The notes under the pieces: model-generated
What the model saw: the letters and a program-made list of their open reading frames with translations, nothing else
Database searches by the model: none
Told to the model about the DNA's origin: nothing
NCBI GenBank assembly: GCA_024654025.1
Contig: JANLIR010000002.1
Coordinates: forward strand, 168,959-232,958
DNA from: Candidatus Wolfebacteria bacterium
Lineage (GTDB): Bacteria; Patescibacteriota; Minisyncoccia; UBA6257; UBA9933
DNA length: 64,000 nt
Reading direction: 5' to 3'
Shown: positions 3,075 through 62,227 of the stretch, piece after piece
Layout: the number at the start of each line of letters is the position of its first letter
How positions within the stretch are numbered: position 1 is the stretch's first letter
Translations under genes and position numbers: made by a program

Positions 3075-4358
3075 ATGTATAATAATCGCCTAAAAATAGT
3101 TTTGTTCGGAGCCGGAGTTATTGCACTTATTTTAGTTGTTCTAAGTGTTTTTTGCGTAATTCCGATAACAAAAAATTGTTCAAAAACTTCCGTGTCCGGA
3201 AAATTAATTTTTTGGGGAGTTGACGATGTTTCCGCTTATCAAACCGTTATAGATAATTACAGCAAGTTTTATAATAGAAAAGTTCAAATTCAATACCAGC
3301 AAATCCCCGAAGCGGATTTTGAAAATACTTTTGTTCGGGCAGTGGCTAAAAATCAAGGGCCCGATATTTTAATGTTTCATAACTCCTGGCTTATAAAACA
3401 GGGCGATCTTTTAGCTCCGGCCACTGACGCGCAAATTTCTTTAGCAAATATTCGCCAGCTTTTCCCGCAGGTTGTTGAAAAAGATTTTACTTACCAAAGT
3501 AAGGTTTACGCGCTTCCTTTATATCTCGACACTCTCGCGCTTTTTTACAATAAAGATATTTTTAATGCTAACGCCGTTGTTTTTCCGCCGGCAAATTGGA
3601 GTGATTTTACGAATTTAGCAACGAGGCTTACGAAAAAACAAGCTAACGGCCAGATTTTACAATCCGGCGCGGCTATCGGCAGCTCTGATAAAAATATCGT
3701 AAACGCAACTGATGTTTTAAATACGTTAATGCTTCAATACGGTTCTTTAATAGTTGATCCATCTTTTATGCGAACTGATTTTAGCGGTAAAGCAACCAGC
3801 GCTTTTGATTTTTACACCGGCTTTGCCAAGCCAGCTAGCAGTAATTATGTTTGGAACCAAAATTTAGGAAACTCGTTTGATTTATTCAGCCAGGGGCAGG
3901 CGGCGATGATTTTCGGTTATGCTAACCAGATTTCATATCTCAAACAAAAAAATCCGCTTTTGAATTTCGAGGTGGCGTCTATGCCGCAGGCCGATCCTTC
4001 AAATCCTAAAAATTACGCCGCTTATTGGGGCTTGGCAGTTTCTTCTAAAAGCGCGAATTCCGAACTTGCCTGGAGTTTTATAAAATACCTGACAACTGAC
4101 CCGCAAAACTCTCTTACTTATCTTCAAGCGACAAAACGGCCGCCGGCTTTGAAAATTTTAATCAAACAATATCAGAATGATCCGGATTTAAATGTTTTTG
4201 CAAACCAAGCGCTTGCGGCAACTTCATGGTATCAGCCCGACTCTGACCAAACCAGCCAGATTTTTTCAAGCGCGGTCGAATCGGTTTTAAGCGGCCAGCT
4301 TACTTCTGGGCGCGCGCTGGAAAAAGCCGCTTCTCAAATAAATAATTTATTTAAATAA
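3075..4358 (+). CDS. extracellular solute-binding protein (ABC family 1-like), N-terminal membrane anchor
   Basis: N-terminal TM helix, then LIFWGV...GPDILMFHNSW...ALPLYLDTLALFYNKD, typical of sugar-type SBPs. No permease gene nearby. Confidence 0.6.
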   Translation: MYNNRLKIVLFGAGVIALILVVLSVFCVIPITKNCSKTSVSGKLIFWGVDDVSAYQTVIDNYSKFYNRKVQIQYQQIPEADFENTFVRAVAKNQGPDILMFHNSWLIKQGDLLAPATDAQISLANIRQLFPQVVEKDFTYQSKVYALPLYLDTLALFYNKDIFNANAVVFPPANWSDFTNLATRLTKKQANGQILQSGAAIGSSDKNIVNATDVLNTLMLQYGSLIVDPSFMRTDFSGKATSAFDFYTGFAKPASSNYVWNQNLGNSFDLFSQGQAAMIFGYANQISYLKQKNPLLNFEVASMPQADPSNPKNYAAYWGLAVSSKSANSELAWSFIKYLTTDPQNSLTYLQATKRPPALKILIKQYQNDPDLNVFANQALAATSWYQPDSDQTSQIFSSAVESVLSGQLTSGRALEKAASQINNLFK

Positions 4359-4363
4359 AATTT

Positions 4364-4702
4364 ATGAATATCGCATACGCTGCTCTAACTCCTTTAGTCC
4401 AATGCGGTCCCGGAACAGCCAAGCTCGAGTGCACTATTTGTGATCTATTTCAATTGGCTCAAAATATTTATAATTTTGTTATTGTTTTTGCGTTTGTTTT
4501 GGCTTTAGGAGCTTTGGTTTGGGCGGGGTTTAAAATAATGACTTCTGCCGGCGATCCGGGAAAATATAAAGACGCGGTTGGAAAAATCAGGACGATTTTA
4601 ATCGGCATAGCCATTCTGCTTTTAGCCGGGTTTGTGGTTGATTTAGTTTTGAAAGTCCTTGTCGGCGGCAGCTTGGGTCCGTGGAATAAATTGCCTTGCT
4701 AA
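4364..4702 (+). CDS. TrbC/VirB2-like (T4SS-pilin-like) small membrane protein, paralog 1
   Basis: Cys-rich N-terminus (QCGPG..LECTICD). Two TM helices flank the motif WAGFKIMTSAGDPGKYK. Confidence 0.55.
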   Translation: MNIAYAALTPLVQCGPGTAKLECTICDLFQLAQNIYNFVIVFAFVLALGALVWAGFKIMTSAGDPGKYKDAVGKIRTILIGIAILLLAGFVVDLVLKVLVGGSLGPWNKLPC

Positions 4703-4732: not shown

Positions 4733-5152
4733 ATGAAATCGCTTTTGTTTAAAATTTCTATAGTATCAGCGATAATTTTCGCGGTTTTTACCACGAGTAT
4801 TTTTGTAGAAAAAGTTTTGGCAGTGTCCGGTGGAGGGGTTAATACAGCGGCGCCGGGCGGCGGAGTTGATTCTGTTGGCGGCGGTAACGGACAGCTTTTT
4901 AATTATTTCGGATCCGGTTCGACTCTTGACAGTGTCCTTTCCAAAATAATCGATTATTTTATCGGTGTTTCGGTTTCAGTGGCTGTGATAATAGTTATCT
5001 ATGGAGCGTGGAAAATGATGACCGCGACAGGCGATCCTAAAAAATTCCAAGAAGGCCAAAAAACAGTTTTGTACGCCGCTATCGGGTTGTTGGTAATTTT
5101 ACTCGCAAGAGGGATTATCGGCGCGTTGTATGGGATAATACAAACGTTATAA
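4733..5152 (+). CDS. TrbC/VirB2-like (T4SS-pilin-like) small membrane protein, paralog 2
   Basis: Signal/TM helix, Gly-rich linker, motif YGAWKMMTATGDPKKFQ between two TM helices. Confidence 0.55.
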   Translation: MKSLLFKISIVSAIIFAVFTTSIFVEKVLAVSGGGVNTAAPGGGVDSVGGGNGQLFNYFGSGSTLDSVLSKIIDYFIGVSVSVAVIIVIYGAWKMMTATGDPKKFQEGQKTVLYAAIGLLVILLARGIIGALYGIIQTL

Positions 5153-5192
5153 TAAATATAAAGAAAAAGGTCGAGAATGAGAAATCAAAAAA

Positions 5193-5558
5193 ATGAAAAA
5201 AGTTTTACAAAAAATTATTTATTCAGGAGCGATTTTATCGCTCGTATTGCCGGTATTTTCGTTTGCCGCGATATTTACTCCGCCAGGCCAGGGGCAACCT
5301 GGAAATATTCCTATAACCGGCCTCTCTAATGTGTATGACACGCTAGATACGGTAGCTAATTATTTGTTGGGATTATTAATTGCTTTGGCGGTTGTTTTCA
5401 TTGTTTGGGGAGCGTTTCAGTTTTTAACTTCCGGTGGAGATGAAGCAAAAACAAAAGCGGCAAGAAATCATATTCTCTGGGCTCTTGTAGCTGTCGCGGT
5501 TGGGTTACTTGCTAAAGGGCTAGTTGCCGCGATAAGAGGAATCGCCGGAAACTTATAA
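5193..5558 (+). CDS. TrbC/VirB2-like (T4SS-pilin-like) small membrane protein, paralog 3
   Basis: Signal/TM helix, motif WGAFQFLTSGGDEAKTK between two TM helices. Confidence 0.55.
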   Translation: MKKVLQKIIYSGAILSLVLPVFSFAAIFTPPGQGQPGNIPITGLSNVYDTLDTVANYLLGLLIALAVVFIVWGAFQFLTSGGDEAKTKAARNHILWALVAVAVGLLAKGLVAAIRGIAGNL

Positions 5559-5728: not shown

Positions 5729-6679
5729 TCAATAAATCTTCAGGAGACCCGGTTGTCCCATGGCCACTTTTATTGGGCCGAGCGGGTTTCCGTTAGTTTT
5801 CCATTTCCAAAAGCCAACCGGTCCCGCTTTCCGTGTTTCGCCGGAGCCCTCGCCAATTATGATCTGGTAAGAGTTTTGGGCGTCAATCGTTATGATTGTC
5901 CCAATGGGCGGGGTCCATGAAGTCACCGCAACGCTCCCGGCCGGAATAAAAACACCATTTCGTCCTTCTTCCGGCGTGACCACGATTTCTTTGAGAACCG
6001 GCGCACTGGGCGCAACCCCCGCTTCCGCGTTAGATGGTTTCATGGTGAGAGTCGTCACGATGCCATTGTCGATTCCCTTTGCTGAGTTCCTTGCGAGCTC
6101 GGCTGTGCGGGGAAGAAACAATGAAATGACGATTGTTATGAAAATCATCGATGCGACAAACGTTATTGCCCTTCCGTTGAAGATGGAAGTGCCTCCGAAA
6201 AGCCGAGTTCCGATAAAGATGATAAAGGCCAAGAGCAGCAGCAACGGGATCAGCTCGGGTCGTTTATCTATCGGAATGATGATAAGCATCAGGGCGAATG
6301 ATAACTCGGCGAATAATACGTGCAGCGTCAGTCGAACATACCGCTCTCCAAACCCCACTGCTGTTCTTCGCCAGATCGCGTCGATTATTAACGCAATCGG
6401 CGCGGCCAGTAAAGAAAGCAAGATCGTGAAGAACGCCCAAACAAGTCCCGCAACCGAAATCCACATCGAGAATCCGAAAATTCCCAGAAGCAGGATTGGT
6501 ATGGGCAGAAGCATCATTACGATTGCGAGCCGCGAAAGCCCGACCCGATATACTTCAAAATCGGTTCTGTTATCGCCCCCAACAAGGGCAATGACCTCGG
6601 CGGCGTCCGCCGCGCCGGTGATGATTGTGTCGAGAATGAGCCGCAGCGTTAAGAGTATTTCACGAAGTGTTTCACGCAT
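5729..6679 (-). CDS. hypothetical polytopic membrane protein with soluble C-terminal domain (GC-rich cassette)
   Basis: Start moved to ATG at 6679, preceded by GGAGGctcctcATG. It overlaps the upstream stop by 8 nt. Several TM helices. Confidence 0.6.
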   Translation of the reverse strand: MRETLREILLTLRLILDTIITGAADAAEVIALVGGDNRTDFEVYRVGLSRLAIVMMLLPIPILLLGIFGFSMWISVAGLVWAFFTILLSLLAAPIALIIDAIWRRTAVGFGERYVRLTLHVLFAELSFALMLIIIPIDKRPELIPLLLLLAFIIFIGTRLFGGTSIFNGRAITFVASMIFITIVISLFLPRTAELARNSAKGIDNGIVTTLTMKPSNAEAGVAPSAPVLKEIVVTPEEGRNGVFIPAGSVAVTSWTPPIGTIITIDAQNSYQIIIGEGSGETRKAGPVGFWKWKTNGNPLGPIKVAMGQPGLLKIY

Positions 6680-7373
6680 GAGGAGCCTCCTTTCGATATT
6701 TGGCAGTCTTCCGGCCGCGTGCTGTGCGGCGGTTATTGAGCCATTCAGCCCAACGGTCGTTGAGGGGTTGAAGTTCTGAACCAATTACTCCAAATACTTC
6801 GTTGAGACGGATCCCAAACATTCTTAGCCACTGCATGACGATGTCGTGGTTGAGAAACTCGATTGCGCTGTCGAATTCTTGCGGAGGAAGTTCGCCGAGC
6901 CAGACGAAGAAGTTGATGGTATCTTCATCGGTCGTTTCCTTCCCTTCCTCGGATTCTTTAAGTATTAAAACCTTTCCGAGACAATCCACAAGAAGATTCT
7001 CTTCGCCAGGCCGGTAATTTCCTTCGTCAGAATAAAGCCGGGGCCGACAAAACTGCCGATCTTCCTGCCTCTTTCTGATGGTTTTTGCCGCGACTTTCTT
7101 CTTTTCATCTTCGGAAGATTCCATCTTCTGTAAAAAAACGAGAAGCTTGGCGCGGTAATGGTCACTCATCTTCGCCTGCACTTTTTTAGCCGTTTCTACG
7201 GCTGCCTTGCTCCCGACTTCGCGAATGACCTCGGCGGCAGCGGTTCTTGACCCCATCTTCATAAGCCCCCAGGCTTTTCTGAGGAGTTCAAAAACAGCAA
7301 TACCCCCTGCCGTTATCCCGAGTTCCTTTCCGACTTCGCCAGCGCTGAAATCAGCTTTCTTTTCCTCTGCCAT
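6672..7373 (-). CDS. hypothetical protein (GC-rich cassette, first gene)
   Basis: ORF preceded by aaAGGAGGacgccgaccATG. No family recognised. Confidence 0.55.
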   Translation of the reverse strand: MAEEKKADFSAGEVGKELGITAGGIAVFELLRKAWGLMKMGSRTAAAEVIREVGSKAAVETAKKVQAKMSDHYRAKLLVFLQKMESSEDEKKKVAAKTIRKRQEDRQFCRPRLYSDEGNYRPGEENLLVDCLGKVLILKESEEGKETTDEDTINFFVWLGELPPQEFDSAIEFLNHDIVMQWLRMFGIRLNEVFGVIGSELQPLNDRWAEWLNNRRTARGRKTAKYRKEAPHA

Positions 7374-7543
7374 GGTCGGCGTCCTCCTTTCAGGATTTAG
7401 ATAGTTTCACTACGGGGTTGACGTAAACTATTTATAAGAGCAAATTTTGGAATAGTTGCCTACCCCAAAATACTTTGATATAATACAATAAAATTATTTA
7501 AAAGTCAACTAATGATTTTGTTAAAAAATAACAGCTAATAATG

Positions 7544-7549
7544 TATAAT
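7544..7549 (+). promoter_or_regulatory. candidate -10 box (TATAAT) for tRNA-Leu
   Basis: TGTATAAT lies 15 nt upstream of the tRNA 5' end. The -35 is weak. Confidence 0.3.
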
Positions 7550-7564
7550 TTATTTGTTTAATAT

Positions 7565-7649
7565 GTCCTCGTGGCGGAAATGGAATACGCGCAGCGCTTA
7601 GGACGCTGTCCCGCAAGGGTTGTGGGTTCGACTCCCACCGAGGACACCA
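7565..7649 (+). tRNA. tRNA-Leu(UAG), CCA encoded
   Basis: Acceptor GTCCTCG/CGAGGAC. Anticodon arm CAGCG CTTAGGA CGCTG. Long variable arm (CCC gcaa GGG). T arm GTGGG TTCGACT CCCAC. Ends ACCA. Confidence 0.9.
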
Positions 7650-7650
7650 A

Positions 7651-7686
7651 ACTATAAATCCCTTCGAGACCGAAGGGATTTATAGT
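7651..7686 (+). terminator. perfect hairpin directly after tRNA-Leu
   Basis: ACTATAAATCCCTTCG aga CGAAGGGATTTATAGT. Confidence 0.6.
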
Positions 7687-7809
7687 TTATATATCACAAG
7701 GGAGGAGAAGGGTATTTAAAAAAGCAAACTGCTTTGCTTTTTTAAAACCCCGGCTCTGGAGGAGTAATTTTCCATGTTTATTTATGAACGAAAAATTACG
7801 GGGGAAGAG

Positions 7810-7831
7810 GACTCCCACCGAGGACACAAAA
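7810..7831 (+). repeat. direct repeat of the tRNA-Leu 3' end (att-like)
   Basis: GACTCCCACCGAGGACAC at 7810-7827 is identical to 7630-7647 of the tRNA. It abuts the 3' end of the recombinase gene. Confidence 0.8.
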
Positions 7832-8800
7832 TTATCCCCTTCTTCTTCCGTGAAATGTTTTGTGTATTTCTTTGAGTTCTTTATTTGTTAAATGCGTGTA
7901 AATTTGGGTTGTGGAAATATTGCTATGGCCTAAAAGTTCTTGCACAGACCTTAAATCCGCTCCTCCGATTAATAAATCAGTGGCAAAGCTATGCCGGAGC
8001 AAATGCGGGTGGATTTTTTGCGGTATCCCCGCTTTTCGGCCGTAAAAATCTATCAAGCGCTGAATTGCGCGAGGAATAATTCTCCCGATAACTTTCGGAT
8101 TTGCTTGCCCTGAGCTCATCGAGTCTGAGACTCTCAGAGTCGAATGACTTGTCGAACGGGTTGCTTTAGTTAAGCTTACAAACAGCGCTTCTTCGGCATC
8201 GGTTCGTTTTCCTAAATAATTTTTTATAGCTTTCTTGGCGGATTCGGATAAAAACACCACTCTTATTTTCCCGCCCTTGCCCCGCACGGAAATTTCTCCC
8301 CTATTCAAATCAAAATACCGGCTCAAAGAACATAATTCTGAAACGCGAAGCCCGGTTGAAAACAAAACTTCCAAAATCGCTTTGTCGCGAAGTCCTTTTA
8401 AATCGTTTGTTTTGGGCGCTGCCATAAGCCGTTCCAAATCCGAGTATTCCATTATATTGATTTGCCGGTTTGGAATTCTAGGAAGCTCGATTTTTTCCGA
8501 AGCTAAAACCCTGTAGTCGTTTTTCGCCAAAAATTTCAAAAAGTTTCTAAGCGCTATTATGTAGTAGCTTTGGGTTGTGCGTTTAAAGTTTTCTCCATCT
8601 CTGGGATTATGAAGCCGCGCCAGATAGATCCGAAAATCTCTTACGTTGTCAGCGGTGATATCGCCCTCGGATTTTATTTTGGCGAAATCAAAAAACTTCG
8701 TTAAATAGTGCTCATAATTTTCCCGCGTGTCTTTAGTCCTGCCTTTTTCAATCTCAAGATAATCAAGATAGTTTTTGAGGAGTTTGTTTATGTCAGCCAT
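7832..8800 (-). CDS. tyrosine recombinase (XerC/XerD-like integrase)
   Basis: Catalytic-domain motifs LFSTGLRVSEL, HPHLLRHSFATDLL, LLGHSNISTTQIYTH. Start placed at MADINK (8800). Carries a roughly 25-aa internal insertion. Confidence 0.85.
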   Translation of the reverse strand: MADINKLLKNYLDYLEIEKGRTKDTRENYEHYLTKFFDFAKIKSEGDITADNVRDFRIYLARLHNPRDGENFKRTTQSYYIIALRNFLKFLAKNDYRVLASEKIELPRIPNRQINIMEYSDLERLMAAPKTNDLKGLRDKAILEVLFSTGLRVSELCSLSRYFDLNRGEISVRGKGGKIRVVFLSESAKKAIKNYLGKRTDAEEALFVSLTKATRSTSHSTLRVSDSMSSGQANPKVIGRIIPRAIQRLIDFYGRKAGIPQKIHPHLLRHSFATDLLIGGADLRSVQELLGHSNISTTQIYTHLTNKELKEIHKTFHGRRRG

Positions 8801-16767: not shown

Positions 16768-17199
16768 ATGCAAACAAAAAAAATTACAGCAGAATATATT
16801 AGGGGCTTTATTGAGGGCGTGGGAACTTTTACTTTCACAACCTCGTCACGGGGTTTCAATAAAAAGGTTAAAATACCAACTTTTCAATTAAGAATGAATA
16901 TTCGAGATAAACGGTTAATTGAATTGATTAAAGGACATCTCGGACTTAAAAATAGGGTTTATATGTATCATTATCCGGGAACTGATGGCGCAAAACGAGG
17001 GCCACAAGCGATGTTAATAGTCCGAGAAATAGGTAATCTGAAAAATATAATCATCCCTTTCTTTTACGATAAGCTGGTTGGGTATAAAGCAGCCCAATTT
17101 AATAAGTGGCTTGAAAGAATAGGTAAAGACTCGGAAGTGCCAGAGGGATTTAAGATTCTATACCGTCTTCATAAATCCGGTTGGTTTTCAAAGAAATAG
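16768..17199 (+). CDS. free-standing LAGLIDADG homing endonuclease (single-motif type)
   Basis: AEYIRGFIEGVGTFTF is LAGLIDADG-like. 143 aa. Confidence 0.7.
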   Translation: MQTKKITAEYIRGFIEGVGTFTFTTSSRGFNKKVKIPTFQLRMNIRDKRLIELIKGHLGLKNRVYMYHYPGTDGAKRGPQAMLIVREIGNLKNIIIPFFYDKLVGYKAAQFNKWLERIGKDSEVPEGFKILYRLHKSGWFSKK

Positions 17200-17483: not shown

Positions 17484-18137
17484 CTAATAGGACGCGAAAA
17501 TACCCTTTGCCCACCCCCGGATTTTTAAAGATAGCCCAACATTACAGATGTAGATTTCAAAAGTTCCATAAGGAAGGCCCTCTTTTTTGGATTTTGTGGC
17601 TCTTTTTACTGAGAGTTTGAAAAACTGCTTTAAAGGGATGCCGGAAATTTCCGACCAGTATTTTTCTGTTCCCCGATGATCAAGGTGGGGATAGATATAA
17701 ATATGCCCCCGGAATTTCTGTTCCGGAACCTCACAAACATCCCTAAAAAAGGCCATCATTAACCTAACTATATTCGGGTCGCTGTTTGAGAACCGGACAA
17801 GGCCTTTTTGGGTTTTCCCACACCCTGCCCAATACAAAACCGAGCCAATTAGCCAAAGCTCACTTCTAGTTATTTTCTTTACCTGCTTTTGCGCTTGGTC
17901 GATAAGGTTTTCTCGTGTAGCTGTTTCCCGAGCCAGTCTGGTTGCGCGTCTTTTTTCCACTACCGAAAGCTTTACGGCGCGCTTTGATAGCGTTTTCTCC
18001 TGGTCTTTAGTTAGCGCGATGTTGCGGACCCATAAGCTCGCGCTACTTTTTGAAACGTTTAAGTTTTTCGCGATCTCGTTCAGAGAGTAACCATAAGCTC
18101 GGAGTTCTCGCGCTTTTTGTTTTTCAGCCTGCTTCAT
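17484..18137 (-). CDS. HTH-domain protein with degenerate LAGLIDADG-like C-terminal domain
   Basis: N-terminal YSLNEIAKNLNVSKSSASLWVRNI (HTH). C-terminal LWLIGSVLYWAGCGKTQKGLVRFSNSDPNIVRLMMAFF resembles homing-endonuclease cores. Confidence 0.5.
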   Translation of the reverse strand: MKQAEKQKARELRAYGYSLNEIAKNLNVSKSSASLWVRNIALTKDQEKTLSKRAVKLSVVEKRRATRLARETATRENLIDQAQKQVKKITRSELWLIGSVLYWAGCGKTQKGLVRFSNSDPNIVRLMMAFFRDVCEVPEQKFRGHIYIYPHLDHRGTEKYWSEISGIPLKQFFKLSVKRATKSKKEGLPYGTFEIYICNVGLSLKIRGWAKGIFASY

Positions 18138-18218: not shown

Positions 18219-18330
18219 TGCGCGTTGAGGGGATTGAACCCCCGACCTGTCGCCTAAGGCGACCGTTCTAACCAACTGCTCCGACGCTTCGGTCGGAGCC
18301 CCGACTTCGTATTAGCGAACGTCGGAGAGC
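18219..18330 (-). pseudogene. tRNA-like remnant or aberrant tRNA
   Basis: The minus strand has a normal D-loop/T arm/acceptor 3' strand (..AGTTGGTTAGAAC G GTCGC cttag GCGAC AGGTC GGGGG TTCAATC CCCTC AACGCGC A). The anticodon loop is only 5 nt and there is no matching 5' acceptor strand. It is preceded by interlocking hairpins GCTCTCCGAC/GTCGGGGC and GCTCCGAC/GTCGGAGC. Confidence 0.3.
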
Positions 18331-18339
18331 TAAAAATTG

Positions 18340-18568
18340 TGGACGCGCCCCGACTCGAACGGGGGACCTTCTCGGTGTCCCGCACAAAGTGGGTGCTATA
18401 GGATTCGAACCTATGACCTTCGCAGTGTAAATGCGACGCTCTAACCAACTGAGCTAAGCACCCACTTTAAGCGGGATTGCGATTTGTTTTTAAAAATTTT
18501 ATATCAAATTAAATTTTTAGACAAATCGGGAATAAACGAGACGCTCTAACCAACTGAGCTACGCGTCC
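18340..18568 (-). tRNA. interrupted tRNA-Val (outer gene); exons 18535-18568 and 18340-18379, 155-nt insert
   Basis: 5' half GGACGCG TA GCTC AGTTGGTTA GAGC G TCTCG TT. 3' half GACAC CGAGA AGGTC CCCCG TTCGAGT CGGGG CGCGTCC A. Joined, they form a perfect 74-nt cloverleaf. Confidence 0.6.
18390..18463 (-). tRNA. tRNA-Val(UAC), nested inside the interrupted tRNA-Val
   Basis: GGGTGCT TA GCTC AGTTGGTTA GAGC G TCGCA TTTACAC TGCGA AGGTC ATAGG TTCGAAT CCTAT AGCACCC A. No encoded CCA. Confidence 0.9.
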
Positions 18569-19206: not shown

Positions 19207-19278
19207 TGCGAGTGGCAGGGATCGAACCTGCGACGGCCGTCTTATAAGGGCGGTGCTCTACCACTGAGCTACACTCGC
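19207..19278 (-). tRNA. tRNA-Ile(UAU)
   Basis: GCGAGTG TA GCTC AGTGGTA GAGC A CCGCC CTTATAA GACGG CCGTC GCAGG TTCGATC CCTGC CACTCGC A. One C-A mismatch in the anticodon stem. Confidence 0.75.
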
Positions 19279-19394
19279 AAATTATTTCATAACCAGCTGC
19301 CTGTCCGCCGCAGTCCGCCTATTGGCGGACGAAGGAGGAAGCTACACGCGCAAAGATAGCAATAAATATAGCAAAAACTTTTGTATAGTCAAAG

Positions 19395-30563: not shown

Positions 30564-31004
30564 ATGGTTAATTCAATCCAACAATTAAGAGACATCACCG
30601 GCGCGGGAGTGATGGAGTGCAAACGCGCTTTAGAAGAGGCCGACAACGATTTGGAAAAAGCCAAGGCCATAATTTTTGAAAAAGGATTGGTCAAGGCGGA
30701 CAAAAAAAGCGAGCGTTCAACCGGTTCCGGAATTTTGGAAACTTACGTTCACAACGGAAGAGTCGCGGTTCTTTTGAAGCTTTTGTGCGAAACCGACTTT
30801 GTTGCCAGAAATGATTTGTTTAAAGAATTAGCGCACCAAATTGCCATGCATATAGCCGCGATGAACCCTGAAAACATAGACGAGTTGCTTAAACAGAATT
30901 TTATAATGAACGAAGAAATTACCGTGGAAGATCTTATCAAACAAAGCATCGCCAAACTTGGCGAAAATATGAAACTTGAAAAATTCTGCCGCTACGAATT
31001 ATAG
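30564..31004 (+). CDS. tsf: elongation factor Ts (short form)
   Basis: IQQLRDITGAGVMECKRALEEADNDLEKA, ETDFVARND. Confidence 0.9.
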   Translation: MVNSIQQLRDITGAGVMECKRALEEADNDLEKAKAIIFEKGLVKADKKSERSTGSGILETYVHNGRVAVLLKLLCETDFVARNDLFKELAHQIAMHIAAMNPENIDELLKQNFIMNEEITVEDLIKQSIAKLGENMKLEKFCRYEL

Positions 31005-31034: not shown

Positions 31035-31478
31035 ATGACTATTAGTTTTGTTTTCGAAATCATATTGATGGCGAGCTTGGGGGCCATGATTTATCTTGTG
31101 GCTCGGGCTGTGCCGCGCGTAAACGACACGGTTTTGGACGAAGGTTCGATAAATAAAGGACTTGGAGAAAGATTCGGTAAATTTATCGATTCTCTTCCTA
31201 TAGAAAAAGCGGACCTGACAATCAGCCGCATTTTGGAGAGGGCGTTAAGAAATTTGAAATTATTGGTAATGAGAGTTGATAACAAGTTAAGCCAGCATTT
31301 GACGAAATTTAAGGCCAAGATTATGAATGGCGAACAAAACGGCAAAAAGCCCACGCTGTTTTCAGTTTCAAACGAGGATAAAGAAAATGGAAATAATTCT
31401 GATATTTCTCCAGCCGAAGAATTATTGAAAGAAACTTCTGATCTTGAAAAAAATAAAAAAGAAGCGGAGGATATATAA
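31035..31478 (+). CDS. hypothetical membrane-anchored protein
   Basis: One N-terminal TM helix. No family recognised. Confidence 0.4.
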   Translation: MTISFVFEIILMASLGAMIYLVARAVPRVNDTVLDEGSINKGLGERFGKFIDSLPIEKADLTISRILERALRNLKLLVMRVDNKLSQHLTKFKAKIMNGEQNGKKPTLFSVSNEDKENGNNSDISPAEELLKETSDLEKNKKEAEDI

Positions 31479-31483
31479 AACTT

Positions 31484-31567
31484 GCGCAGGTGGCGGAGTG
31501 GTCAATCGCAACAGACTGTAAATCTGTCGCCCTTGTGGCTACGGGGGTTCGAATCCCTCCCTGCGCA
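31484..31567 (+). tRNA. tRNA-Tyr(GUA)
   Basis: GCGCAGG TG GCGG AGTGGTCAA TCGC A ACAGA CTGTAAA TCTGT, long V arm, GGGGG TTCGAAT CCCTC CCTGCGC A. Confidence 0.9.
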
Positions 31568-31579
31568 CACTTTTTTGTC

Positions 31580-31760
31580 GCCGAAGTAGCTCAGTGGCAG
31601 AGCAACTGTTTTGCGTCAGCCCCGTTAGATATGCCGGGATAGCTCAGTGGTAGAGCAACTGTTTTGTAAACAGTAGGTCGTCGGTTCGAATCCGACTCTC
31701 GGCTCTCTCGGTGTATCTAACGGGGTAAATAGGTCGCGAGTTCGAATCTCGCCTTCGGCT
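31580..31760 (+). tRNA. Thr-like tRNA shell interrupted by a complete tRNA-Thr (outer gene; possibly a pseudogene)
   Basis: 5' part GCCGAAG TA GCTC AGTGGCA GAGC A ACTGT TTTG... 3' part ...TAAAT AGGTC GCGAG TTCGAAT CTCGC CTTCGGC T. The acceptor pairs perfectly. The 3' anticodon-stem strand is missing. Confidence 0.45.
31633..31704 (+). tRNA. tRNA-Thr(UGU), nested
   Basis: GCCGGGA TA GCTC AGTGGTA GAGC A ACTGT TTTGTAA ACAGT AGGTC GTCGG TTCGAAT CCGAC TCTCGGC T. Confidence 0.9.
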
Positions 31761-31770
31761 CTAGACAAAA

Positions 31771-31842
31771 GCCAGAGTAGTTCAGTGGTAGAACGCTTTC
31801 TTGGTAAGAAAGAGGTCGGGAGTCCGATTCTCCCCTCTGGCT
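31771..31842 (+). tRNA. tRNA-Thr(GGU)
   Basis: GCCAGAG TA GTTC AGTGGTA GAAC G CTTTC TTGGTAA GAAAG AGGTC GGGAG TCCGATT CTCCC CTCTGGC T. The T loop reads TCCGATT rather than TTCGAxx. Confidence 0.85.
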
Positions 31843-31919
31843 CAAAATTAACTTTTAACAAGCAATTCGTAACCAGTAACGGATATTTTTATAAAAACTT
31901 GAAAAGTTACGGATTCTGC

Positions 31920-31954
31920 GTTATAAGTTAATAGTTACAAGTTACTAGTTAATA
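31920..31954. repeat. 5 x 7-nt heptad array just upstream of rpmG
   Basis: GTTATAA GTTAATA GTTACAA GTTACTA GTTAATA. Confidence 0.75.
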
Positions 31955-40935: not shown

Positions 40936-40968
40936 GCCCCGCACCAAAACAAGTGTTGGTGCGGGGGC
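40936..40968 (+). terminator. polX terminator hairpin (CCCCGCAC family)
   Basis: CCCCGCACCAA aacaagtg TTGGTGCGGGG. Confidence 0.6.
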
Positions 40969-54871: not shown

Positions 54872-54949
54872 AAATTTACAAAAGGTGCGGGGTGAACCGT
54901 ATGCGGTTGCCAGTTTCACTACCTGCCTTTTTGTTGTTTGCTGGTGGCG

Positions 54950-55876
54950 CTATCTAAATAAGTTTTTTGGGTTAAAAAACTGAATATGTTTCTCCGGATA
55001 TCTTAAAAATTCAAATTTTTTTGGGTTTTTTATAAAAGCTTGATACAACGGCGTTTTGAAAATCTTTTTTGGCTTAACGATTTTAAAGTTAATCTGGTTT
55101 TTATAATTAGGATTTTTTTCTAATAGGAACGATGCTGATTTATGCGGATTTAACTGATTTATACGGATATTTTTCTTAATTTTTTTGTTATTGGTTATAA
55201 GTTGTCGGTTATTAGTTATATAGTAGGCGGCTCCGCGGTGTTTTTTAAAAAAACTATAATCCGATTTAAAATTTGTCGCCTGGATATTGGATAATACCAG
55301 CGGCTCGCTCCCAATATTTATGCTGACATGGCCGAATCCCGGAGGCACAATAACCTTTTCTCCTGTCCCGGCTTTTATTAAATAAATTCTAGCGTTTTTT
55401 CCAAAATGACCTACAGAATGATTTATTTGAGGACTTATTTCTTGAAAAAGAAAAAGCGCTTTTCCTTTTATAACTTCGTATATTTCCGGGTAGGTTGTTT
55501 TTGTTTGCGGTTTATTCGGGTGAGCGTGGCCGATTGTTTTTACGAATTCTTCGCCTAAAAATCCAGGATTGATAACGGTTATGTCGTAGGTCGCGTTGTT
55601 CTTTTTAAAAACCAAACCATCCTTTTTTAATTTGACGCTTCGATACATCAAATAAAGGTTTTTTATTTTGGTTTTGCTAGCGGGATCTTTTAAAAACCTT
55701 TTTGCTTCGCCCAAAGTCCTTTTTTGGACGGGCAATGAGGAGGCGTCTTTTGACAATAACAACTTACCATCTTTTATTGATATTGGCAAGCCCCGTAACT
55801 TAAAAACACCGGTCTTTTTATGACGCGCATTTGAGAGCTTAATATTATTTTTGAAATTGAGTTTACTTTTTGCCAT
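54950..55876 (-). CDS. cupin-type glucose-6-phosphate isomerase-like protein
   Basis: TIGHAHPNKPQTKTTYPEIYEV (TxGHxH...ExY) and VPPGFGHVSIN (PPxxxHxxxN), as in archaeal cupin PGIs. Confidence 0.65.
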   Translation of the reverse strand: MAKSKLNFKNNIKLSNARHKKTGVFKLRGLPISIKDGKLLLSKDASSLPVQKRTLGEAKRFLKDPASKTKIKNLYLMYRSVKLKKDGLVFKKNNATYDITVINPGFLGEEFVKTIGHAHPNKPQTKTTYPEIYEVIKGKALFLFQEISPQINHSVGHFGKNARIYLIKAGTGEKVIVPPGFGHVSINIGSEPLVLSNIQATNFKSDYSFFKKHRGAAYYITNNRQLITNNKKIKKNIRINQLNPHKSASFLLEKNPNYKNQINFKIVKPKKIFKTPLYQAFIKNPKKFEFLRYPEKHIQFFNPKNLFR

Positions 55877-56002
55877 ATATAGTAATATTTAAAAAGCAGC
55901 TATGCGCGTTTTGTGTTTTTAAGTTACGGGGCAAGCCGCTCGCCGCGGATAAATTTTCAATTTTTAATTTTACAACTTTCATTGAATTTTTAATTGGGAA
56001 AT

Positions 56003-62092: not shown

Positions 62093-62227
62093 ACCCCGCA
62101 CCTTTTATGGATATATTTTTTTCGAAGCGGCAAAATGGGGTAAAATTTAATCACTTAAAAATAAATATTTGGAAATTTGAATGCTATAATGCTAAGTAAG
62201 CTTCGCAATCCATAAAAGGTGCGGGGT
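62093..62227. repeat. 20-bp perfect inverted repeat pair bracketing the recA upstream region
   Basis: ACCCCGCACCTTTTATGGAT (62093-62112) against ATCCATAAAAGGTGCGGGGT (62208-62227). Confidence 0.85.
62182..62190 (+). promoter_or_regulatory. candidate extended -10 (TGCTATAAT) for recA
   Basis: TGcTATAAT lies 45 nt upstream of the recA ATG, inside the inverted-repeat element. Confidence 0.35.

Follow-up and report, generated by a model that had tools for sequence, protein, structure and literature searches.

How is a tRNA gene tolerated when a second, complete tRNA gene lies inside it, and which of the two does the cell use? The question is raised by positions 31580–31760 of a 64,000-nucleotide (nt) stretch of DNA from a Candidatus Wolfebacteria bacterium (hereafter the window, to which all coordinates without a contig name refer), where the two halves of a tRNA-Thr gene, which we call the shell, enclose an intact tRNA-Thr(UGU) gene bracketed by the arms of an inverted repeat. 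Our answer is that the shell is probably the former resident tRNA-Thr(UGU), split by a mobile cassette that brought a replacement gene with it, the inner gene being functional and the shell a relic. At the level of sequence comparison, insertion into a pre-existing gene, cargo that matches the invaded gene in anticodon and orientation, serial nesting, decay of the shells and mobility of cargo-less copies are established; the inner gene presumably works, is co-transcribed with the tRNA cluster and is freed by normal processing.

Read from its 5' end, the shell supplies positions 1–35 of the former resident gene (acceptor strand, D arm, 5' strand of the anticodon stem and the loop sequence TTTG) and, on the far side of the insert, TAAAT followed by the variable region, T arm, 3' acceptor strand and discriminator. 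TAAAT stands where TAAACAGT, the 3' strand of the anticodon stem, would be expected, the CAG of that strand being absent (Table 1). The shell acceptor strands pair at 7/7 positions and the orphan T arm at 5/5, and neither ARAGORN nor Rfam called the shell. The insert is 112 nt long, 72 of them tRNA, and contains no open reading frame (ORF). Its tRNA forms a complete cloverleaf with the second-highest Rfam tRNA score in the window, and the allele (GCCGGGA...TCTCGGC) differs from that of the shell. A repeat search aligned shell and inner gene as a direct repeat of 34 nt at 88%. It also recovered a 24-nt inverted repeat, 83% complementary, whose 12 terminal pairs are perfect and which owes its full length to the trailer behind the inner gene. 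The spacer in front of the left arm, CGTCAG in the window, reads CGCCAG, CTCCAG or CGGCAG in other nests, and its CAG could base-pair with CTG in the shell's strand of the anticodon stem.

A preliminary description, made from the letters alone, had recognised a gene within a gene, two genes of the same amino-acid family, an exact 12-bp inverted repeat around the inner tRNA, perfect outer acceptor pairing (GCCGAAG/CTTCGGC), a normal outer T arm and the missing 3' anticodon-stem strand; on reading positions 31400–31950 all of these elements and their coordinates hold, both genes being Thr(UGU). It went astray in one expectation, that the uninterrupted form would be a Thr-CGU isoacceptor. The intact gene of a relative, described next, is a plain tRNA-Thr(UGU), and CGT belongs to the variable spacer CGYCAG, which reads CGC, CTC or CGG elsewhere, so the Thr-CGU candidate was dropped.

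Orthologous loci were fetched via the 147-aa protein encoded beside the nest; in all of them the genes run S2, EF-Ts, 147-aa protein, tRNA cluster, L33 and aminotransferase, and they are cited here by L numbers. A contig scan with this protein gave one locus, and the comparison rests mostly on exact-protein look-ups plus one metagenome scan. L024 carries, at 3933–4004, an uninterrupted tRNA-Thr(UGU), GCCGAAGTAGCTCAGTGGCAGAGCAACTGT TT TGT AA ACAGT AGGTCGCGAGTTCGAATCTCGCCTTCGGCT, with which the window shell is identical at 34/34 positions in the 5' half and at 30/30 in the 3' half (from AGGTC on), indicating that the shell is a former resident gene. Two things set the window apart from L024: the insert, which follows TTTG and parts anticodon positions 35 and 36, and the loss of CAG from the 3' stem strand. 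Considering that a close relative still has the intact gene to which the perfect shell is identical, the insertion in the window appears to be recent. Two further genes occur in both states: Thr(GGU) is intact in the window and a nest in L001, and Val(UAC) is a nest in the window and a single uninterrupted gene with the same anticodon arm in L041, L043 and L044. In the bacterial cases, the cargo gene and the gene that it interrupts always agree in anticodon and in orientation. This rule can be explained by selection alone, because with single-copy tRNA genes only an insertion carrying the right spare gene would be viable.

The arms identify the kind of DNA that was inserted. Among eight arm variants, trimmed by hand to a fixed register, 13 pairs could be compared; 99% of cells are paired, nine pairs have changed on both sides, and a single G-U occurs in 104 cells. 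Because pairing is nearly exclusively Watson–Crick, the arms are best understood as a DNA inverted repeat. They form a family of the type CCCCG...CGGGG, with 12 perfect bp in the window Thr nest and 12–19 bp elsewhere, in which the terminal tip (CCCCGCACC or CCCCGTTAGA) is conserved and the inner arm parts and internal sequences are unrelated between copies, complementarity being kept. Copies of the terminus family in the window lie at 31620, 40937, 54879, 55791 and 62094, and a repeat search of the fetched bacterial loci found the termini around non-tRNA sequence at L030 1846–1925, L033 7002–7060, L043 4382–4483 and L044 4356–4468. Six cargo-less copies are flanked by 4-bp direct repeats (CAAG, TAAA, CAAG, TTGA, TTTA, TTTA). 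An empty site is also available: the window and L041 read CTCTTTACAAAC, the same site is filled in L044 (CTCTTTA[113 nt]TTTACAAAC), and in L043 that TTTA is occupied by another element. Given the cargo-less copies with their 4-bp duplications and the empty and filled states of one site, the arms are the ends of mobile elements that form an inverted-repeat family, and the 12-bp helix of the preliminary description is the terminal inverted repeat of this wider family, which had been missed.

The tRNA cargo of this arm family comprises Thr(UGU), Thr(GGU), Val(GAC) and Leu(CAG), and in L030 the family termini come after a Val(GAC). In all cassettes, the 3' end of the tRNA is separated from the right arm by at least five unpaired bases. 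Several insertion points share TTTA^C, namely solo sites, the Val anticodon loop (TTTA^CAC) and the Thr(UGU) loop read on its minus strand (ACTG TTTA^CAAAA CAGT); having been spotted after the fact, this motif is a lead rather than a test.

The architecture recurs far beyond the window. A scan of JGI and ENA metagenome assemblies with the 5' junction (GCAACTGTTTTGCNNCAGCCCCG) as query returned 13 loci, every one of which has an arm-bracketed tRNA-Thr(UGU); the 3' junction CGGGG TAAA, absent from the query pattern, is present in 13/13 as well and is followed by TAGGTC in most. We refer to Thr nests with CGYCAG at the left junction and CAG lost at the right as F1. The acceptor and T-arm sequences of the 13 shells are of at least six kinds, combined with several arm sequences and several inner alleles. 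The acceptor strands (GCCGAAG, GCCTGAG, GCCATCC, GCCACCT, GCCTGGG, GCCGACT) mostly still pair perfectly, implying that the distinct shells descend from different functional genes. L019 has the shell and junctions of the window with other arms (CCCCGCACCTTTCC / GGAAAGGTGCGGGG) and another inner Thr(UGU) allele, and L021 has a third inner allele inside its Thr(UGU) nest. L001 holds an identical copy of the window's inner Thr(UGU) with the same left arm, its right arm and shell 3' half being gone, and has in addition a Thr(GGU) nest whose cassette, with arms CCCAGCACCTTTT / AAAAGGTGCTGGG, contains another Thr(GGU) gene.

Some loci are nested repeatedly, to three levels in L033/L038 and L032 and to four in L028. 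A second cassette type, with the ends CCTRCCCGCCATCGCCTAA ... GGCAGGCGGG, lies in L033 exactly at 35/36 of a shell with an intact anticodon stem. The middle shell of L033 matches the innermost gene of L028 at 33/34 and 30/30 positions, and shell C of L028 matches the inner gene of L019 at 18/18 and 27/30; as far as sequence goes, the same alleles are intact genes in one contig and shells in another. The earlier description had reported a second nest, of tRNA-Val, and argued from two unlinked loci for a recurrent mechanism rather than an accident. The Val nest is real (minus strand, 18568–18340), the proposed search of related genomes has yielded further nests in relatives and metagenomes, and recurrence now extends to Val, Thr and a Leu(CAG) remnant in the window and to Thr(GGU), Val(GAC) and Tyr in relatives, with the same architecture in more than 13 independent assemblies; together with the identity of both shell halves to an intact gene, this puts the arrangement well outside what chance would produce.

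This recurrence also bears on the possibility of a local accident or artefact, in which a tandem Thr duplication was rearranged or strain variants were mis-assembled. Long identical tRNA stretches can mislead assemblers and promote recombination, and the data are metagenome-assembled. Nevertheless, the inner gene and the shell are different alleles, unique inverted-repeat arms bracket the inner gene, 13 further contigs, which come from different samples and assemblers (JGI, ENA, NCBI), show the same junction with consistent structure, and cargo-less members of the arm family have inserted independently, with target duplications, which leaves this explanation with only a minute probability.

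In relatives, the shells decay. Inserts are found in the shell T loop in L019 (85 nt, structured), L021 and L037 and in the shell D loop in L001, L028 and L032, the L001 5' half having a hairpin inserted in the D arm. L021 has lost the 5' acceptor strand in addition to gaining its T-loop insert, and shell 3' halves are missing from L001, L028 and L032. The shell acceptor stem of L036 is unpaired (GCCGAGG versus GGGTGGC) because the shell 5' half became identical to the inner one, and the shell T stem of L030 is chimeric (GTGGG/CCGAC). Shell and inner sequences are thus still recombining. In L028, the damage grows from the innermost to the outermost layer.

The decay decides against a working shell RNA, in which acceptor stem, T arm, long helix and inner tRNA would form a composite tmRNA-like (transfer-messenger-RNA-like) transcript serving as a scaffold for processing, stability or regulation. 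Such a role would fit the flawless acceptor, D and T arms of the window shell, a predicted fold that retains the shell acceptor stem, T arm and long helix (z = −6.6), the covariation of the arms and a CTG...CAG hairpin (CGG...CCG in L021) that could sequester the shell strand competing with folding of the inner tRNA. In relatives, however, shells are interrupted, truncated or unpaired, with outer layers progressively decayed, which argues against a conserved function; L024 manages without a shell; the arms pair in the nearly pure Watson–Crick manner of DNA repeats and also surround non-tRNA sequence; and the perfection of the window shell is explained by its identity to the intact gene of a relative, pointing to a recent event. 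We therefore regard a working shell RNA as very improbable. The preliminary description had offered both options, a decayed copy or an RNA in which helix and inner tRNA replace the anticodon arm; the comparative data back the former, and the decayed shells contradict the latter.

Could the interruption instead be mended at the RNA level? RNase P and a 3' endonuclease would excise the inner tRNA, leaving 3'-OH and 5'-phosphate ends, and ligation of the shell halves would then give two tRNAs per locus. Exact removal of the insert would restore a perfect anticodon arm in the Val nest (TCTCG TT TAC AC CGAGA) and likewise in the outermost shell of L033 (GCGGT TT TGT AA ACCGT), a nest in a phage (L002) has no extra sequence around its inner tRNA, and by established enzymology the ends produced by RNase P and RNase Z suit an ATP-dependent RNA ligase. 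On the other side, the Thr nest without 31614–31725 reads ACTGT TT TGT AA AT AGGTC, which has no 3' stem strand, a defect common to all F1 nests, and excision of the tRNA would leave 19 to 21 nt of arm and spacer on each exon. By inspection only, the predicted folds of the Thr and Val nests are a long uninterrupted helix or a multiloop, with no bulge-helix-bulge (two 3-nt bulges, 4-bp helix). There was no match to a ribozyme or intron family at the Rfam gathering threshold in the window and none to Intron_gpI at E ≤ 1 in five related loci, and no splicing endonuclease or ligase was seen among the scanned proteins of the 64-kb window. RNA-level splicing could be imagined for the Val nest and for L033's outermost shell; as an account of the Thr nest we consider it highly unlikely.

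A stronger competitor is homing, in which a trans-acting site-specific endonuclease would cut the anticodon-loop region of uninvaded tRNA genes, and repair would copy the cassette with nearby exon sequence from the invaded allele, the replacement tRNA playing the role that the self-splicing ribozyme has in a group I intron. Homing would account for the same isoacceptor and orientation in all bacterial cases and for nests that lack a target duplication. The junction-proximal shell is identical between nests, including the loss of CAG, beside varied distal shells, which resembles co-conversion, and L030, L036 and L027 have a chimeric T stem and homogenised 5' halves; such a pattern, with its shared proximal junction and chimeric T stem, is equally expected from recombination after insertion. 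A competence gene of the ComEC type and recA are also present in the genomes. Exactly such a design came up in L014 when phage contigs were scanned generically, where a helix-bracketed tRNA-Asn and a PF11645 PD-(D/E)XK endonuclease gene leave no room for a ribozyme and where the shell gene has an intact form in L039/L040. Phage tRNAs are dispensable. Free-standing endonucleases aimed at tRNA gene clusters are known, for example T4 SegB (PMC2330249), and group I introns occupy position 35/36 in Patescibacteria tRNAs (PMC13011429).

Against homing stands the lack of an endonuclease gene within or adjoining the Thr nest of the window. A helix-turn-helix (HTH) protein and a LAGLIDADG ORF (16768–17199) near the Val nest are equally placed in relatives with an uninterrupted Val gene and show no correlation with invasion. 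Moreover, the arms are the termini of a family that inserts elsewhere with 4-bp duplications, which homing neither needs nor explains. On balance we hold homing to be possible, with the odds clearly against it. As for phages as vectors, IMG/VR scans with the F1 junctions gave chance matches only, without tRNA context.

The HTH protein deserves a description of its own. It belongs to a family of about 220 aa with an N-terminal HTH and an unidentified alpha/beta domain, has 94 homologues, is widespread in Patescibacteria and lies beside tRNA clusters. In the window, its gene adjoins a true LAGLIDADG_1 ORF (plus strand; Pfam 8e-9), and in L001 a GIY-YIG ORF (7430–8164) lies among the tRNAs. The motif LYWAEG hinted at a LAGLIDADG-like homing endonuclease; Pfam and PDB profile searches matched the HTH only, no nuclease fold was recognised in the family, and this candidate was rejected. 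The family was likewise rejected as the agent of invasion, its gene being present in relatives with an uninterrupted Val gene.

The preferred reading, replacement by a mobile cassette, would proceed as follows. A 112-nt cassette would have landed between anticodon nucleotides 35 and 36 of the resident tRNA-Thr(UGU) and destroyed it; as the cassette supplies the same isoacceptor, the cell would lose nothing. The inner gene would now be the functional one, presumably co-transcribed with tRNA-Tyr and released by the normal tRNA-processing enzymes, and the two shell halves would be relics. The intact anticodon loop of the new inner gene would become the next target, such that repeated invasions would build Russian-doll nests with decaying outer layers. 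The entry route that we favour is insertion by the enzyme that moves the inverted-repeat family, followed by spread between alleles through homologous recombination within tRNA sequence, with selection keeping only those insertions whose cargo matches the destroyed gene. The termini and the solo insertions speak for transposition, and the shared F1 junction beside varied distal shells, together with the chimeric stems, for recombinational spread or homing.

Several observations weigh against this reading. No target-site duplication is visible at the Thr, Val and Leu nests, unlike at the cargo-less copies, and the odd junction shared by all F1 Thr nests, with CGYCAG at the left and CAG lost at the right, is not predicted by simple cut-and-paste. 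No transposase was found among about 30 window proteins scanned (roughly half of the window ORFs), no transposase, integrase or endonuclease lies in or beside the Thr nest, and the fetched loci, a small search space, hold no long autonomous element with the same termini. The window shell is perfect in its acceptor, D and T arms, and it is the relatives and the broken anticodon stem that make the case for its non-function. The presumption that no other Thr(UGU) gene exists and that the inner one is expressed is made from 64 kb of the genome, and all comparative data are metagenome assemblies.

Two details of the F1 junction can be added to its description. At the left, CGYCAG takes the place expected for TAAA, and at the right TAAA is retained without CAG, as if TAAA and CAG had swapped sides, and the junction CAG (CCG in L021) is complementary to the shell CTG (CGG).

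Table 1. Coordinates of the Thr nest, of related elements in the window and of features in compared contigs
Sequence	Feature	Position	Strand	Description or basis
Window	Shell 5' half	31580..31613	+	GCCGAAG TA GCTC AGTGGCA GAGC A ACTGT TTTG
Window	Junction spacer CGTCAG	31614..31619	+	By reading
Window	Cassette left arm CCCCGTTAGATA	31620..31631	+	Repeat search; arm covariation across loci
Window	Inner intact tRNA-Thr(UGU)	31633..31704	+	ARAGORN; Rfam tRNA 75.8 bits
Window	Trailer CTCTCGGTG	31705..31713	+	Degenerate second copy of inner 3' acceptor strand
Window	Cassette right arm TATCTAACGGGG	31714..31725	+	Exact reverse complement of left arm
Window	Shell 3' half	31726..31760	+	TAAAT AGGTC GCGAG TTCGAAT CTCGC CTTCGGC T
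Window	Intact tRNA-Thr(GGU)	31771..31843	+	Uninvaded; in L001 a shell (6083-6245) around another Thr(GGU) cassette
Window	Val nest	18340..18568	-	tRNA-Val(UAC) shell; 5' half 18568-18533 ends TTTA; 3' half 18377-18340 starts CAC
Window	Leu nest remnant	54879..54930	-	5' half of tRNA-Leu(CAG) ending TTCA (35/36), then arm CCCCGCACCTTTTG; by reading
Window	Cargo-less element	62094..62226		19-bp arms CCCCGCACCTTTTATGGAT, 95-nt AT-rich loop, TAAA/TAAA flanks; directly upstream of recA
Window	Cargo-less element	55791..55931		19-bp arms CCCCGTAACTTAAAAACAC, 103-nt loop, CAAG/CAAG flanks
Window	Minimal hairpin	40937..40966		Same arm sequence CCCCGCACCAA, loop 8; directly after stop codon
Window	HTH family gene	17484-18137	-	
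Window	LAGLIDADG ORF	16768-17199	+	
L001	HTH family genes	4784-5401, 6506-7177		
L019	HTH family gene	3519-4136		
L027	HTH family gene	3363-3977		
L014 (IMG/VR)	Phage nest	4046-4661		Helix-bracketed tRNA-Asn and PF11645 endonuclease (E = 2.6e-35) inside tRNA-Asn
L002 (IMG/VR)	Phage nest	6110-6257		tRNA-Asn in anticodon loop of tRNA-Lys(UUU)-like gene; no arms, no extra flanks

The Val shell encloses an AT-rich hairpin with arms CCCGCTTAAAGT / ACTTTGTGCGGG and an inner tRNA-Val(UAC) at 18463–18389, and the Leu remnant, which is without the 3' arm and the 3' half, lies just upstream of a working tRNA-Leu(CAG) (54871–54787). Outside called tRNAs, the window has three orphan T arms (31736–31752, 18364–18348 and 18243–18227), and for the first two an upstream 5' acceptor strand pairs at 7/7 positions.

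Just downstream of the Val nest, in tandem, lies a dead tRNA-Val (18219–18332, minus strand) with two D-arm hairpin insertions, a 5-nt anticodon loop (GTCGC CTTAG GCGAC) and the T arm GGGGG TTCAATC CCCTC; it resembles the intact Val(UAC) of L041, L043 and L044 and is probably the original resident Val gene, decayed. At 19290–19351 (minus strand), a 5' fragment of tRNA-Ile(UAU) of the type found in L041 and L044 (GCGCGTG TA GCT, a 43-nt GC-rich hairpin insert, CTGGTTA) stands directly upstream of a working tRNA-Ile(UAU) at 19278–19206, which is the L043 allele; the fragment is the remnant of another tRNA gene replacement. A tRNA-Ile with the anticodon UAU, which this genome uses, is uncommon in bacteria.

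Among the cargo-less copies, the element upstream of recA contains a promoter-like TTGAAT...TATAAT, and the minimal hairpin may act as a terminator. L019, in a shell T loop (4388–4475), and L021, in an anticodon-loop insert (3580–3660), share a structured module, CTCCGAT-[hairpin]-ATCGAGAGTCCTCGAT, which may be another small repeat family entering tRNA loops, and GC-rich palindromes of the type CCTGCCTGCCGGCAGGCAGG are present in shell D and T loops (L032, L037). At L021 4330–4617, a tRNA-Thr(GGU) is interrupted behind GGTA (36/37 region) by about 230 nt without an Rfam family match; this insert may be one of the Patescibacteria tRNA-Thr "divergent group I introns" of PMC13011429. In L027 and L036, a tRNA-Tyr is nested within a Tyr shell bearing CTGCCTACCGGCAGGCAGG hairpins. 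The tRNA-Tyr(GUA) position itself (window 31484–31568, L001 5396–5480, L019 4131–4215, L024 3843–3927) is occupied by two unrelated alleles among close relatives whose neighbouring protein is 86–89% identical, the second allele always having an HTH ORF directly upstream.

The Thr nest is neighboured by tRNAs and the 147-aa, membrane-like protein, which is 100% identical to NUV83_01050 of a Candidatus Wolfebacteria metagenome-assembled genome, and a weak promoter-like site is found at 31425–31454. Genes for GyrA, PNPase, FtsH, S2, EF-Ts, ClpB, FtsK, RecA, RNase J and tmRNA lie in the window, and the host is a small-genome Patescibacterium. The EF-Ts is very short, at 146 aa (30564–31004).

Insertions in essential genes are usually tolerated through self-splicing, as with group I and II introns and inteins, or because the cut end is rebuilt, as with tRNA-targeting islands; here a whole spare gene is carried. 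If the reading holds, the element would be essential from the instant of insertion and every new copy would be the next target, giving nests up to four deep. It would further account for the unrelated alleles of one tRNA among closely related Patescibacteria, leave a legible trace of how tRNA genes turn over horizontally in very small genomes and show that standard tRNA finders skip shells silently. The inverted-repeat element family is newly defined and comes with a simple sequence signature for finding it. More tentatively, and with less than an even chance of being right, the cassettes may act as a self-propagating gene-replacement drive that targets the anticodon-loop DNA of its own tRNA, kills the resident copy and becomes indispensable as the one gene left for that isoacceptor; the tRNA repertoires of Patescibacteria would then turn over horizontally, one cassette at a time, the nests would be a fossil record of invasions, and in nests with an intact arm (Val, outermost L033) the inner tRNA might also be a protein-processed intron.

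How does this arrangement compare with known systems? [quoted passage not shown] Like MITEs, the elements are short and non-coding, have terminal inverted repeats and several copies per genome, and include cargo-less copies with 4-bp target duplications and an empty site. Unlike MITEs, they bring functional tRNA cargo into a target of the same isoacceptor and leave no duplication at tRNA sites; their inner arms and interiors are unrelated between copies, and a parent transposase with matching termini was not found in a small search. To our knowledge, MITEs have neither tRNA cargo nor a self-matching target.

Group I introns in the anticodon loops of Patescibacteria tRNAs are reported to be enriched at the 35/36 site (PMC13011429), and the nests, cut at Thr TTTG|T, Val TTTA|C and Leu TTCA|G, share with them the host group, the loop and the position, as well as a working tRNA kept by the host and the lack of an endonuclease gene in most copies. 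They differ in that group I introns measure about 180 nt or more with a ribozyme core, whereas the Thr insert has 112 nt and no Rfam intron match; in that the base ahead of the insertion is G or A rather than the U that precedes a 5' splice site; and in that the interrupted gene stays broken and is rescued by a complete spare gene within an insert that has long inverted-repeat ends. Archaeal split and multi-intron tRNA genes (Nanoarchaeum) are likewise interrupted at various positions, with complementary flanks forming a helix. Here, however, the host is a bacterium, as indicated by tmRNA, RNase J and bacterial ribosomal proteins, the gene is not reconstituted, and the insert is a complete tRNA gene.

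Closer in their consequences are T4 SegB (PMC2330249) and the PF11645 tRNA-intron endonucleases, where, too, tRNA genes are hit by selfish DNA and resident alleles are replaced with signs of co-conversion; those systems replace or flank genes and do not nest a gene within its predecessor, and the window nest has no linked endonuclease. With tRNA-targeting islands and prophages, finally, the nests share the compensation of a disrupted tRNA by supplied tRNA sequence and the anticodon loop, which is a classic crossover site. Islands, unlike the nests, are kilobases long, encode an integrase, supply only the part downstream of the crossover and leave the displaced fragment at their far end, whereas the window nest consists of 112 ORF-free nucleotides and runs in the order 5' half, whole gene, 3' half.

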